In this document: in pieces, positions 12,045-24,378 of the stretch
Position numbering within the stretch: the stretch's first letter is position 1
How the letters are laid out: the number at the start of each line of letters is the position of its first letter
From: Burkholderiales bacterium
GTDB lineage: Bacteria > Pseudomonadota > Gammaproteobacteria > Burkholderiales > SG8-39
DNA: 64,000 nt
Assembly (NCBI GenBank): GCA_038904015.1
Contig: JBCKKZ010000002.1
Location: 8,369 to 72,368, forward strand
Direction: 5' to 3'
Program-made: the position numbers and the translations under genes
Notes under the pieces: generated by a model
What the model was told of the DNA's origin: nothing
Database searches by the model: none
What the model saw: only the letters and a program-made list of their open reading frames with translations

Positions 12045-12374
12045 TCAAGCAGAAGTGGCGCGGAGGGCGTTCCGGGTCTTCAGACTGTCGACGGCGTGCA
12101 CCAGGGGCGCGTCGCCCTGCATCAGGTGGGCGATTGCGCCGTACACCAGCCGCTGGCTATCGAGCATGCTCCTGCCGGCGAACGCGGGCGACGTCACTTC
12201 GATGCTGAAGTGTCCGCCGCCGCCGTTGACCGCGGCCCGTGAATTGGGGATCTGCTGCTCGATGGCCTCGCGCAGCGCGTCGGCCGACAGGCCGAGCTTG
12301 GGCGCGAGCATCTCGGCATCGAGGGTGATCTCGCCGTCTGCGATGGTGATCGCTGATGCGGGAACAGGACTCAT
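12045..12374 (-). CDS. BolA/IbaG-family protein with a DUF6522-like N-terminus
   Basis: GGGGHFSIEVTSPAFAGRSMLDSQRLVY...HAVDSLKT (BolA); N-terminus [23 protein letters not shown]. Confidence 0.75.
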   Translation of the reverse strand: MSPVPASAITIADGEITLDAEMLAPKLGLSADALREAIEQQIPNSRAAVNGGGGHFSIEVTSPAFAGRSMLDSQRLVYGAIAHLMQGDAPLVHAVDSLKTRNALRATSA

Positions 12375-12997
12375 CGCGGTGCGGCTCCGGCGACAGGGCC
12401 CTTCACCGTCATGGGCTTGCCCGGGACGAAGTTGATGCAGACCCCGTCAAGCTCTTCCAGAAGCAGCGGCTCGCTCGCGAACCCGCACGCATAGGGCGCC
12501 TGTCCCTCCCGGCTGCAGCCGTCGCCTTCCAGATGCTTACACGACGCGCAGGTGCCGAAGGGAGGTTTGCCTCTCTCCCACGCCACCTGGCCGAGCATGC
12601 GCTGCAAGGCGTTGGCGAAGTGTCCGCGGACGCCCGAGGGTAGGGCGTCCGCGGCACGGACCAGGGCTTCGAAGAGGTCGTTCACAAGAATGGCCGTGGC
12701 TTTGTCGGTCAGAACAAGCCGGACACTGCGCCGGTCGGCCTCTGAGCGCATGCGTGTCAGATAGCCTTGGGTTTCGAGGTTTTTGATCGTCTGCGACGCC
12801 GTGCCCCGGGTCGTGCCATGGAACGCGGCGAAGGCGGACGGGGTGCGCGAGAAGCGGTTGGCCCGCGCGAAGTATCTGAGCACAGCCCACTGGACTGCCG
12901 TCAGCCCCTCCACGAGCCCCTCGCCGGACGCTATGCGCCCCAAGTGCAAGACCAGCTCCGCGATGGCGCGACTGTCCATTTTCGGCTCCTTGATCAT
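12371..12997 (-). CDS. MarR-family regulator with Cys-rich C-terminal tail, copy 1
   Basis: GLTAVQWAVLRY...TRGTASQTIKNLETQGYLTRMRSEADRRSVRLVLT; tail CASCKH...C...C. Confidence 0.9.
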   Translation of the reverse strand: MIKEPKMDSRAIAELVLHLGRIASGEGLVEGLTAVQWAVLRYFARANRFSRTPSAFAAFHGTTRGTASQTIKNLETQGYLTRMRSEADRRSVRLVLTDKATAILVNDLFEALVRAADALPSGVRGHFANALQRMLGQVAWERGKPPFGTCASCKHLEGDGCSREGQAPYACGFASEPLLLEELDGVCINFVPGKPMTVKGPVAGAAPR

Positions 12998-13004
12998 GCG
13001 CAGA

Positions 13005-13056
13005 TAGTAGCGTTTAAAGATTATATTGACAAGAGGATGGTTTCGAATCGATACTA
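13005..13056. promoter_or_regulatory. Promoter with two putative MarR operators (copy 1)
   Basis: TTGACA 13026-13031, GATACT 13050-13055 (18-bp spacer); boxes TAGTAGC-N5-AAGATTA and TGGTTTC-N5-GATACTA; conserved at 24386-24437. Confidence 0.65.
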
Positions 13057-13143
13057 AAACAGCTTAGTTGCAATACTAAAGCGCGCTGACACGGACTACC
13101 TGAACACACCTCGGCTCACAATTCGCCTACTGCCTACATAATC

Positions 13144-13839
13144 ATGCGTTTAAGCATCTACCGCTACGACCCCGACAAGGACGCCAAGCCCTATATGCAG
13201 GACTACGACGTCCCGCTCGAGCAGTCCGACCGGATGCTGCTCGACGCCTTGGTCAAGGTCAAGGCGCAGGACGACAGCTTCTCCTTCCGGCGCTCGTGCC
13301 GCGAAGGCGTGTGCGGGTCGGACGCGATGAACATCAACGGCAAAAACGGGCTTGCCTGCATTATGCGCGTTGCCGACCTGAAGGAGCCCGTGGCAATCCG
13401 GCCGCTGCCCGGACTGCCGGTAATCCGCGACCTGATCGTGGACATGACGCAGTTCTTCAAGCAGTACGAGTCGATCAAGCCGTATGTCATCAATGACACG
13501 CCGCCGCCCGAACGCGAGCGGCTGCAGTCGCCCGAGGAGCGCGAGAAACTAGACGGCCTGTACGAGTGCATCCTGTGCGCCTGCTGCACGACCGCGTGCC
13601 CGTCGTTCTGGTGGAACCCGGACAAGTTCGTGGGGCCGGCGGGGCTGCTGATGGCCTATCGCTTCCTCGCCGATTCGCGCGACCAGGCCACCAGCGAGCG
13701 CCTCGACAATCTCGAGGATCCGTACCGGCTGTTCCGCTGCCATACCATCATGAATTGCGTCGATGTTTGTCCCAAGGGACTTAATCCGACCAAGGCGATC
13801 GGAAAGATCAAGGAGATGATGGTTCGGCGGATGGTGTGA
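13144..13839 (+). CDS. sdhB: Succinate dehydrogenase iron-sulfur subunit
   Basis: RRSCREGVCGSD, YECILCACCTTACPSFWWNPD, FRCHTIMNCVDVCPKGL. Confidence 0.97.
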   Translation: MRLSIYRYDPDKDAKPYMQDYDVPLEQSDRMLLDALVKVKAQDDSFSFRRSCREGVCGSDAMNINGKNGLACIMRVADLKEPVAIRPLPGLPVIRDLIVDMTQFFKQYESIKPYVINDTPPPERERLQSPEEREKLDGLYECILCACCTTACPSFWWNPDKFVGPAGLLMAYRFLADSRDQATSERLDNLEDPYRLFRCHTIMNCVDVCPKGLNPTKAIGKIKEMMVRRMV

Positions 13840-23249: not shown

Positions 23250-23355
23250 AGCGCATTCCTCTATTTTTCGCAGGGCAGATAATGAAAAAGTCCTATCACC
23301 TTCCTCTATCTGCGTGGCAACACCATGCAATCTGCTTTCAGCGAACCATTCTCCA

Positions 23356-23619
23356 TCAGACAGTAAGGGCAGAGGATCGTCTCTTTGTTGCCCATGTCGA
23401 GTTAGGCGTCTCAATGTACCGCTTGAACGCAAGGTAGCTCTCAATGAATCCGCGTCTATATTCTGGCAGGCTCGCATGGCTTGGCTTCGTGAATCCGCGT
23501 TTCCGACTTGTCAATACCGCTTTCCGGTACTGGCTACGACAGTGCATCGCAAATGCATTCGCCCCGGCAATACCGTCACGGTTTTCCACAAACCAAAGTC
23601 GTTGTTTCTCTGCTTCCAT
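23356..23619 (-). CDS. Hypothetical 87-aa protein
   Basis: RBS GGAG + [19 protein letters not shown]...[21 protein letters not shown]; lies in the operon path between marR2 and gltB. Confidence 0.55.
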
Positions 23620-23635
23620 GTCAATCTCCACACGC

Positions 23636-23755
23636 CTAATCGGTGATCGGTAAGCGCAGTGGGGCGAGCGCTTGAAGATGCGCTCGCAGCCGGCGGGCGA
23701 GCGTTTCAGGCGTGTGGTGCTCAACGGTCGTCGTCGCGGCGGGAACAGGACTCAT
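23636..23755 (-). pseudogene. 39-aa stub after marR copy 2 (MSPVPA start + BolA-like N-terminal fragment)
   Basis: MSPVPAATTTVEHHTPETLARRLRAHLQALAPLRLPITD*; first six codons shared with 12045-12374. Confidence 0.5.
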
Positions 23756-24378
23756 CGCGGTGCGGCTCCGGCGACAGGGCCCTTCACCGTCATCGGCTTG
23801 CCTTGGACGAAGTTGATGCAGACCCCGTCCAGCTCCTCCAGAAGCAGCGGCTCGCTCGAGAACCCGCACGCGTAGGGCGTCTGTCCCTCCCGGCTGGCGC
23901 CGTCGCCTTCCAGATGCTTACACGACGCGCAGGTGCCGAAGGGAGGTTTGCCTCTCTCCCACGCCACCTGGCCGAGCATGCGCTGCAAGGCGTTGGCGAA
24001 GTGGCCTTGGACACTGGGGGGTAGGGAGTCCGCAGCACGGACCAGGGATTCGAAGGGGTCGTTCGCAAGAATGCCCCTGGCTTTATCGGTCAGAACGAGC
24101 CGGACACTGCGCCGGTCGGCCTCTGAGCGCATGCGCGTCAGATAGCCTTGGGTTTCGAGGTTTTTGATCGTCTGCGACGCCGTGCCCCGGGTCGTGCCAT
24201 GGAACGCGGCGAAGGCGGACGGCGTGCGCGAGAAGCGGTTGGCCCGCGCGAAGTATCTGAGCACAGCCCACTGGACTGCCGTCAGCCCCTCCACGAGCCC
24301 CTCGCCGGACGCTATGCGCCCCAAGTGCAAGACCAGCTCCGCGATGGCGCGACTGTCCATTTTCAGCTCTTTGATCAT
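23752..24378 (-). CDS. MarR-family regulator with Cys-rich tail, copy 2
   Basis: Near-identical 208-aa paralog of 12371-12997. Confidence 0.9.
   Translation of the reverse strand: MIKELKMDSRAIAELVLHLGRIASGEGLVEGLTAVQWAVLRYFARANRFSRTPSAFAAFHGTTRGTASQTIKNLETQGYLTRMRSEADRRSVRLVLTDKARGILANDPFESLVRAADSLPPSVQGHFANALQRMLGQVAWERGKPPFGTCASCKHLEGDGASREGQTPYACGFSSEPLLLEELDGVCINFVQGKPMTVKGPVAGAAPR

Follow-up and report, generated by a model that had tools for sequence, protein, structure and literature searches.

In Proteobacteria, IscR-type control is the textbook case of iron-sulfur (Fe-S) regulation; IscR governs Fe-S assembly by cluster status, and SoxRS induces fumC, aconitase, fpr, yggX and rib genes. 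SufR of Synechocystis is transcribed divergently from sufBCDS, has two binding sites and regulates itself, and Rv1460, likewise a SufR, depends on three essential cysteines (C203, C216 and C244), as stated in parts of one published account (PMC6034842). ArnR, a [4Fe-4S] regulator with a MarR/ArsR-like winged helix, also carries three cysteines, and the accessible portion of its description states no homology to known sensors (PMC12343034). Here we describe a cassette of about 700 bp that occurs twice in a 64,000-nucleotide stretch of DNA from a Burkholderiales bacterium (contig JBCKKZ010000002.1, positions 8,369 to 72,368; hereafter the window) and encodes a MarR-family regulator with a four-cysteine tail. 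This cassette heads a horizontally spread Fe-S island, and with a probability of roughly 0.6 its protein is an autorepressor, the tail of which would bind a cluster and free both flanking promoters on cluster loss.

The proposed system would share control by cluster status with IscR, and the targets of SoxRS overlap the cargo of the island, but the regulators belong to other protein families, and here regulator, operators and targets travel on one mobile locus, of which an Rrf2/IscR-like gene is itself a cargo. The likeness to SufR lies in a winged helix with C-terminal cysteines, in a position heading or divergent from a suf operon and in two intergenic sites (PMC6034842, in part). The same layout was found here: iscA is the first divergent gene in 69 of the 127 cassettes that could be scored, sufB occurs in 68 of 137 loci and the two sites lie 33 bp apart. 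In contrast to SufR, with its three cysteines and large C-terminal domain, the protein combines a MarR fold with four cysteines (C-x2-C-x11-23-C-x15-C) in a 45-residue tail, and the cassette is mobile, present in several copies and also heads client and bypass enzymes. OhrR, MgrA, SarZ and AdcR/ZitR share the MarR fold and a palindromic operator between divergent genes, but lack a C-terminal four-cysteine domain, according to the available sections of a 2024 review (PMC11672702). The suf clusters on the Polaromonas plasmids pE3SP1, pE5SP1 and pE10SP1 were described by Ciok et al. 2018 and seen as a polar adaptation to reactive oxygen species (ROS), as far as the accessible parts of that paper go (PMC6015842). 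These plasmids carry the same island (iscA-sufBCDSU-bolA-grxD-nifU-mrp-lipA, aconitase, NDH-2 and VIT), and their MarR copies are 74% identical and accompanied by the palindrome. In the available text of that paper, "MarR" is absent from the main part and present only as a COG1846 annotation in a supplement table, and the passages at hand do not describe an operator, a role of the regulator, repeated cassettes or the capture of single Fe-S subunits (PMC6015842). Our literature searches, mostly without subscription papers, found no description of this regulator and no paper on DUF6522; the regulatory system of the island is apparently undescribed, while suf clusters were already described on Polaromonas plasmids. 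The two cassettes of the window comprise the following elements.

12371..12997, minus strand: MarR-family regulator (marR) copy 1, 208 amino acids (aa), winged helix plus four-cysteine tail at 12437-12550
13005..13023, unstranded: operator-like palindrome beside marR copy 1; overlaps the predicted -10 of the marR promoter
13038..13056, unstranded: second operator-like palindrome in cassette 1; overlaps the predicted -10 of the rightward promoter
13004..13055, unstranded: overlapping divergent sigma-70-like promoters (consensus match only; position conserved across loci)
23752..24378, minus strand: MarR-family regulator copy 2, 208 aa (sequence comparison and family scan)
24386..24404, unstranded: operator-like palindrome beside marR copy 2 (matrix scan)
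24419..24437, unstranded: second operator-like palindrome of cassette 2 (matrix scan)

The two regulator genes, already located correctly by the first-pass annotation, are 93% identical to each other and lie in a DNA repeat of 702 bp (94.3%) that comprises the marR gene, ~60 bp of promoter and ~15 bp downstream. A third copy, 98.6% identical to copy 1, is situated on the same contig before the window (C2:3129-3752, plus strand). On one of its sides stands Rrf2-iscA-iscA-sufB, where the contig ends; on the other side follows ndh2-folE-lipA-rhodanese-mrp-nfuA-selO-sagB-Rieske-GBBH_N-radical SAM, the end of which fills positions 1-7640 of the window (lipA is named from the annotation of a homologous plasmid). 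Since this third cassette lies on the same contig, the island measures at least 37 kb and has three cassettes and six arms. The four divergent arms originally described, with both of their cassettes, are real, but neither the third marR copy nor the suf operon nor the operator had been noticed. The Rrf2 gene (C2:2520-3005, locus L001) probably represents a second Fe-S regulator taken up as cargo; we take its product to be IscR-like, followed by a few codons resembling the start of IscS. In a DNA tree, marR copies 1 and 3 pair up (support 100/96), and copy 2 is no nearer to them than some metagenome copies are. The differences between copies 2 and 1 are concentrated mid-gene, which together with the tree placement suggests a separate arrival of copy 2 plus conversion.

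The regulator matches Pfam MarR_2 with 47 bits against a cut-off of 27, and every top Foldseek match listed for the full-length model is a MarR protein. Helices are predicted at residues 9-24, 109-117 and 121-141 (the dimerisation helices around the winged helix) at predicted local distance difference test (pLDDT) values above 90. Neither copy matched an Rrf2 domain in Pfam or NCBIfam, and no SufR model matched the regulator among the NCBIfam results at E 1e-5. Both copies contain C150, C153, C171 and C187, as first noted together with the C of copy 1 and the A of copy 2 at residue 161. All four cysteines are present in 120/120 close homologues (the best 120 of 2015 matching proteins, all 81-100% identical), in every locus row covering the tail (58 of 63 rows) and in 101 of the 102 full-length proteins aligned from 150 listed 50%-cluster representatives; the last spacing is 15 residues in all 101 of these distant homologues. 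A cysteine at position 161 occurs in 105 of the 120 close homologues and is not conserved among the distant ones, so a functional difference between the copies due to this fifth cysteine was rejected.

In the full-length model (pLDDT 92), the tail blocks reach 92-96 and a variable loop 81, and the tail is thus predicted to be an ordered domain. No solved MarR structure matches beyond residue ~139 by sequence. Modelled alone, the tail reached a pLDDT of only 65, and a fold search with this low-confidence model gave no Foldseek match and a best VIA-align Z of 2.3, to chromodomains. Pfam, PDB sequence and fold searches revealed no match of the tail to known metal-binding folds, and an Atlas search returned only unnamed clusters, under 0.9. 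A HiPIP-like tail, suggested by the cysteine spacing, gained no support, HiPIP being absent from the Pfam and PDB sequence matches and the tail model weak, and a heme c motif was rejected because the tail carries CxxCxH, not CxxCH, with cytochrome matches at E 0.6-1. Given that the tail lacks an informative fold match, its cofactor is deduced from gene context only, which suggests that the tail probably binds an Fe-S cluster and acts as a cluster sensor; the first-pass annotation had proposed an Fe-S cluster or a metal and the sensing of cluster damage.

About 75 bp upstream of marR are common to the loci and contain two 19-bp palindromes, 33 bp apart, with the pattern TAGTWTC-N5-GAWACTA around a TTGTCAA core. 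In both window cassettes, the predicted promoters read TTGACA-18-GATACT (plus strand) and TTGTCA-17-TACTAT (minus strand) with a common TTGTCAA/TTGACAA core, and each predicted -10 falls within one palindrome. A promoter scan found 10 promoter-like sites versus 6.5 in shuffles; hence the position of the promoters, not their count, is taken as evidence. An operator matrix built from 68 sites at other loci had nine matches in the 2.06-Mb genome, six at the three cassettes (12.6-29 bits) and three weak ones elsewhere, against 3-7 matches in five shuffled genomes. In held-out metagenome loci, all 75 cassettes whose upstream DNA was long enough have a site there, against none elsewhere in 596 kb, which shows conservation and not independent origin because these cassettes are related sequences. 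Distant homologues with sites are the stronger evidence: the palindrome also stands beside 37-45% identical homologues, sites lie upstream of two chromosomal homologues directly downstream of cyaY (genomes G031 and G035) and of those on plasmids of Bradyrhizobium, Leisingera and Ruegeria, and an Octadecabacter plasmid has two site pairs at promoters detached from the marR gene. The homologues of genomes G040 and G039 have no strong site upstream. A genome-wide regulon search in the source genome (G000), G031 and G035 found no sites above background, and a terminator scan showed no excess over background. The cassette very probably regulates both arms. In the two cyaY-linked cases, a third strong palindrome lies 1-2 kb off (L154:6993 and L155:10572), near a gene for a lysine/alanine-rich histone H1-like (HC2) protein. 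The operator-promoter segment is tandemly duplicated in loci L007, L019, L031, L036, L041, L093 and L131, resulting in three to four palindromes before marR.

The cargo was surveyed for 141 cassettes in 137 loci, many of which are short, and related contigs are not independent. The first divergent gene was linked to Fe-S assembly in 92 of the 127 scorable cassettes (the 69 with iscA, Rrf2 8, bolA and sufU 4 each, mrp 3, sufB and grx4 2 each) and encoded an Fe-S protein in 13 (aconitase 7, ferredoxin 2, sdhB, nuoI, lipA and moaA 1 each); the remainder comprised ribB (5), seven others and 10 unrecognised genes. The usual facing genes are iscA-sufBCD. On the downstream side, with 117 scorable cassettes, ndh2 (29) and bolA (22) prevailed, followed by thiC (6), ispH (3), two cases each of gltB, a 2Fe-2S ferredoxin, tenA, fdh, edd and nfuA, and six single cases. 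Scans of 122 and 62 selected proteins, in which not every singleton was annotated, added NadA, IlvD, FumC, CysJI, YggX, peroxiredoxin, AhpD, acetohydroxyacid synthase (AHAS), SerA, 6-phosphogluconate dehydrogenase and sigma factors. Most of these cargo families serve in Fe-S assembly, depend on Fe-S clusters as clients or provide Fe-S-free bypasses. Ratios of nonsynonymous to synonymous substitution rates (dN/dS) of 0.05-0.33 for cargo and 0.14-0.35 for marR indicate purifying selection. Genes of the sigma-70 family (RpoH, RpoD-like) recur in first or second position behind the cassette or behind detached operators (L074, L113, L176, L177, L179 and L056).

The genes of the window arms are listed below. 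The neighbours named in the first-pass annotation were recovered by NCBIfam and Pfam (CDGSH, Fpr, NuoI, NuoB, ThiC, SdhB, NAD-dependent formate dehydrogenase (FDH), ETF-QO, GltD, GltB, RibB, VIT1, DUF169 and aconitase); the bolA neighbour does contain a BolA domain, but this open reading frame (ORF) is a DUF6522 remnant fused to it. Unless stated otherwise, assignments are from the family scan.

1..7643, plus strand: arm end of the third cassette (Mrp C-terminus, NfuA-like, SelO, SagB-like, Rieske ferredoxin, GBBH-like_N, CUAEP/CCAEP radical SAM, broken ATP-grasp)
7650..7880, minus strand: CDGSH protein
8030..8773, minus strand: ferredoxin-NADP reductase (Fpr-like)
8770..8850, minus strand: nuoJ 5' remnant, matching the host NuoJ start (C86)
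8854..9342, minus strand: lone NuoI (complex I Fe-S subunit)
9326..9415, minus strand: nuoC 5' remnant; its first ~12 codons agree with the beginning of host NuoC, and locus L072 has a longer remnant
9444..9920, minus strand: lone NuoB (complex I Fe-S subunit), dN/dS 0.05-0.15; ORF caller start 9941
9911..10060, minus strand: second DUF6522 5' remnant joined to the final 24 nuoA codons, a recombination scar
10092..11975, minus strand: ThiC (Fe-S enzyme of thiamine synthesis), dN/dS 0.08-0.15
12045..12374, minus strand: DUF6522 N-terminal remnant (aa 8-41, E 0.004) fused to BolA (aa 48-95)
13144..13839, plus strand: lone SdhB (complex II Fe-S subunit)
13842..13946, plus strand: sdhE 5' remnant (Sdh5 positions 2-27 of 76)
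14001..15200, plus strand: NAD-dependent FDH, presumably of the metal-free family
15303..16952, minus strand: ETF-ubiquinone oxidoreductase (ETF-QO; 4Fe-4S domain)
17042..18505, minus strand: GltD; ORF caller start 18553
18507..23249, minus strand: GltB; ORF caller start 23477
23356..23619, minus strand: 87-aa ORF without Pfam family; same junction in locus L073
23636..23755, minus strand: remnant of ancestral downstream genes, a DUF6522 start fused to the start of a 140-aa ORF ("orfX")
24513..24680, plus strand: 55-aa ORF without Pfam family; same junction in locus L074
24677..25423, plus strand: RibB (DHBP synthase)
25509..26204, plus strand: VIT1/CCC1-family metal transporter
26201..26923, plus strand: DUF169 protein
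26939..28900, plus strand: aconitate hydratase (PRK07229 type)

The ancestral downstream order is marR-DUF6522-orfX-ndh2, and the window arms bear the scars of former operons, namely the DUF6522'::bolA fusion, the DUF6522 5' remnant joined to the end of nuoA, and the starts of nuoC, nuoJ and sdhE. The gene orfX (L022:970-1392), part of the ancestral operon, has no Pfam family and occurs in 65 of the 137 loci, often as a remnant; the Atlas contains many unnamed relatives and a DUF6522 fusion cluster. At the nucleotide level, the nuoB gene of the island and the nuo operon of the host itself (contig C64) agree at 91% over 546 bp. In comparison with five same-genus genomes, identities were 84-91% for nuoB and nuoI, 80-83% for sdhB, 76-80% for ETF-QO, 75-77% for thiC and 69-71% for gltBD, which indicates that the cargo donors differ. 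Protein queries from genome G001 against 140 island records detected full nuoB in 5, nuoI in 4 plus 3 fragments, and sdhB in 4; NuoE, NuoF, the nuoG-position frame, SdhA and SdhC were found in 0 of the 140, and nuoA, C, D and H as fragments only. At least two lineages of nuoB (~80% alike, with different junctions), three of nuoI (71-75%) and two of sdhB (64%) can be distinguished, and a lone nuoB on a Bradyrhizobium plasmid and a lone sdhB on an Octadecabacter plasmid stand beside MarR homologues of 43% and 45% identity, respectively. Judged from these sequences, lone nuoB, nuoI and sdhB were captured independently several times.

The ancestral sequence left after the marR stop ranges from 0 to 400 nucleotides with many different values in 100 cassettes, a measure that an indel also ends, and the nuoC remnant encompasses 127 aa in L072 versus ~12 matching codons in the window. 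The variable junctions and the longer remnant in L072 point to progressive deletion and not to site-specific insertion. The arms are modular: marR is joined straight to a nuoA'-nuoB arm in L072, bolA-thiC is followed by DUF6522 sequence in L107, L116 and L083, and in the window as well as in L107 and L116 a DUF6522 5' copy lies on either side of cargo. Given this modularity and Logan contigs that join position 12354 to 10078 and 23744 to 9985, the most plausible reading of the leftward arm at copy 1 is a fusion of two older arms via a DUF6522 remnant. In runs X3 and X7, compared with window 16965-17770, ETF-QO is joined to a partly deleted or replaced gltD region, a further-trimmed variant of that arm. 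The surveyed loci have no recombinase family recurring beside the cassette, and integrases and insertion sequences (IS) occur only sporadically. The idea of the first-pass annotation that the regulator-promoter unit served as a gene-capture module holds insofar as varied cargo with scars of former operons lies directly behind the same cassette, but not as a dedicated machine, as the junctions are variable; on the sequence evidence, capture is the outcome of selection plus ordinary recombination and deletion, with arms swapped through short shared sequence.

The model that fits best is a SufR-like, cluster-gated autorepressor that is nevertheless not SufR by family models. A MarR dimer would bind TAGTWTC-N5-GAWACTA and thereby shut both arms, given the overlap of each site with one promoter -10. 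The holo form would bind and the apo or damaged form would let go, as in cyanobacterial SufR. Candidate upstream stresses are oxygen or ROS in cold oxic water, nitric oxide (NO), soft metals and iron lack. Induction may then supply assembly capacity (SUF, IscA, NfuA, Grx4, BolA and Mrp), fresh apoprotein of vulnerable clients (aconitase, ThiC, LipA, MoaA, NadA, IspH, IlvD, Edd, CysJI, GltBD, ETF-QO, NuoB, NuoI and SdhB) and Fe-S-free bypasses (NDH-2, FumC, NAD-dependent FDH and TenA). New cargo would arise by non-specific joining of chromosomal DNA behind either promoter, after which deletion trims it to the useful gene; recombination through the cassette and the DUF6522 5' remnant may stack or exchange arms, and each extra cassette would provide two more regulated promoters. 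More tentatively, we hypothesize that a MarR fold and a new four-cysteine cluster domain constitute a new class of Fe-S sensor on a portable two-way promoter, and that capture and trimming built natural lists of growth-limiting Fe-S proteins, including lone NuoB, NuoI and SdhB (never NuoE/F/G or SdhA) as spare parts for the in-place repair of complexes I and II.

Several observations weigh against this model. No downstream cargo was recognised in 38 of the 117 scorable cassettes, and some cargo (RibB, ThrRS, AHAS, SerA and sigma factors) has no obvious Fe-S tie. The sites with two mismatches in G031 and G035 numbered 13 and 16, below the reversed-pattern control (20 and 38). A more distant clade (Ruegeria, G039) with the same tail and a similar palindrome adjoins genes for a heme protein, a redoxin and a MOSC protein rather than Fe-S genes, so the tail need not report Fe-S status. 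Four cysteines suit zinc as well as Fe-S; C-x2-C plus two distal cysteines is a motif that often holds zinc. According to the available part of the 2024 review, no metalloregulatory MarR proteins other than zinc sensors have been characterised, and cysteine oxidation is the common switch of the family (PMC11672702). With the same cassette and regulon, the tail could thus be a zinc-thiolate redox switch from which oxidants, NO or reactive sulfur eject the zinc or in which they form disulfides, the signal being the oxidant. Zinc-finger Pfam matches in 14 of 69 tails (zf-piccolo, best E 0.02), the redoxin and heme-protein neighbours of the distant clade, and peroxiredoxin and AhpD among the cargo are in line with this switch. 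However, the zinc-finger matches are weak and far below the cut-off, Fe-S assembly and Fe-S clients dominate the cargo, and superoxide dismutase and catalase are absent from the recurring annotated families, not every singleton being annotated; we regard the zinc switch as unlikely. Binding of a thiophilic metal or metalloid (Cu, Ag, Hg, Cd, Co or As), with the island as a resistance determinant that replaces destroyed Fe-S enzymes, appears still less probable. Cu(I) does hit Fe-S assembly and dehydratases according to the same parts of the review (PMC11672702), heavy-metal P-type ATPases reside on the same Polaromonas plasmids and one arm has a VIT1 transporter, but these ATPases lack the palindrome, and genes for metal efflux as well as mer and ars genes are absent from the recurring families and from the first genes behind the cassette.

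Apart from the cofactor, the repeats themselves might reflect the cassette's own mobility as a dedicated site-specific, integron-like capture device. Homology stops sharply just past the outer palindrome, many different first genes follow, and the cargo between two DUF6522 5' copies would suit such a device, yet the 0-400 nucleotides left after the marR stop reveal no fixed insertion point, the ragged neighbour remnants differ in length between loci and a recurrent recombinase family is lacking, which makes this reading very improbable. It is hardly credible that the repeat and the mixed arms stem from metagenome mis-assembly or decaying passenger DNA. Three repeats of 94-98% identity can mislead assemblers, and no contig in four runs spans the whole stretch, so that the arm order across the repeats rests on this assembly. 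The window junctions recur, however, in the independent contigs L072, L073, L074, L104 and L107, several are bridged by Logan contigs of two other studies (runs X3 and X7), finished plasmids carry 2-3 matches each, and the dN/dS of 0.05-0.35 speaks against decay. The local junctions are not an assembly artefact, and the repeat is not due to chance.

In a profile search, none of 24 same-genus genomes contained marR, and 4 of 16 genomes from other families of the order contained distant homologues, while 2015 of 2689 candidate proteins were relatives at E 0.001. GTDB genomes contributed 56 loci, one of which (L059, 33%) is an unrelated MarR; of the 212 confirmed metagenome stretches, the best 80 were kept, and 31 plasmid records contain relatives. 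A tree was built from 72 DNA rows, namely those GTDB loci among L004-L058 with coverage of the gene, 16 of the 80 metagenome loci kept and the three copies of the source contig. Within it, Comamonadaceae, Methylococcaceae, Alteromonadaceae and others are mixed in a starred clade of 30 rows, and another clade combines Alphaproteobacteria with one Myxococcota and one Acidobacteriota bin, which may hold foreign contigs. By these comparisons, the cassette is horizontally spread across Proteobacteria and on plasmids, with a patchy distribution. Ice, biofilm, sediment and mat metagenomes are the best holders, the top one of which could be the source itself, and an Antarctic glacier yielded the closest plasmids. 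A strictly cold-only distribution was ruled out by short marR pieces in hot-spring, estuary and freshwater-sediment runs and by the Bradyrhizobium plasmid from New Zealand. One metatranscriptome yielded only short pieces, 88-95% identical, which speak neither for nor against expression.

Some further features of the window were recorded beside these arms. Two inverted GBBH_N - CUAEP/CCAEP radical SAM - ATP-grasp clusters (5325-7643, plus strand, and 31041-32952, minus strand) are complementarily broken, the radical SAM gene being whole in the left one and reduced to its tail in the right one, and the ATP-grasp broken in the left one and whole in the right one. A short ORF at 30698-30994, which we presume to resemble the start of an IS110 transposase, has only BLACT_WH as Pfam match, and nearby DNA matches contigs C1 and C19. 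Beside the island, positions 33000-60700 form a defence/plasticity region with GNAT, Fic, DUF1631, HsdR, restriction-modification-like and toxin-antitoxin-like genes and with direct repeats of 300-470 bp (33781-34397/44205-45297 and 55145-55850/56863-57490). A TPP riboswitch had no Rfam match in the window, and none upstream of the native thiC of G001 either; we therefore do not claim that such an element was lost when thiC was captured.

Taken together, the cassette would offer a ready-made regulator-operator pair for what is likely a new family of Fe-S sensors in Proteobacteria. Its cargo may serve as an evolutionary read-out of the Fe-S proteins that fail first under stress, and the repeated, independent retention of only NuoB, NuoI and SdhB turns the repair of bacterial complexes I and II at subunit level into a question that can be tested directly. 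Cultured, harmless hosts with the cassette on sequenced plasmids are at hand in Polaromonas E3S and E10S and in Octadecabacter arcticus 238. The island may be a common adaptation in cold, oxygen-rich habitats, to which it is not confined.

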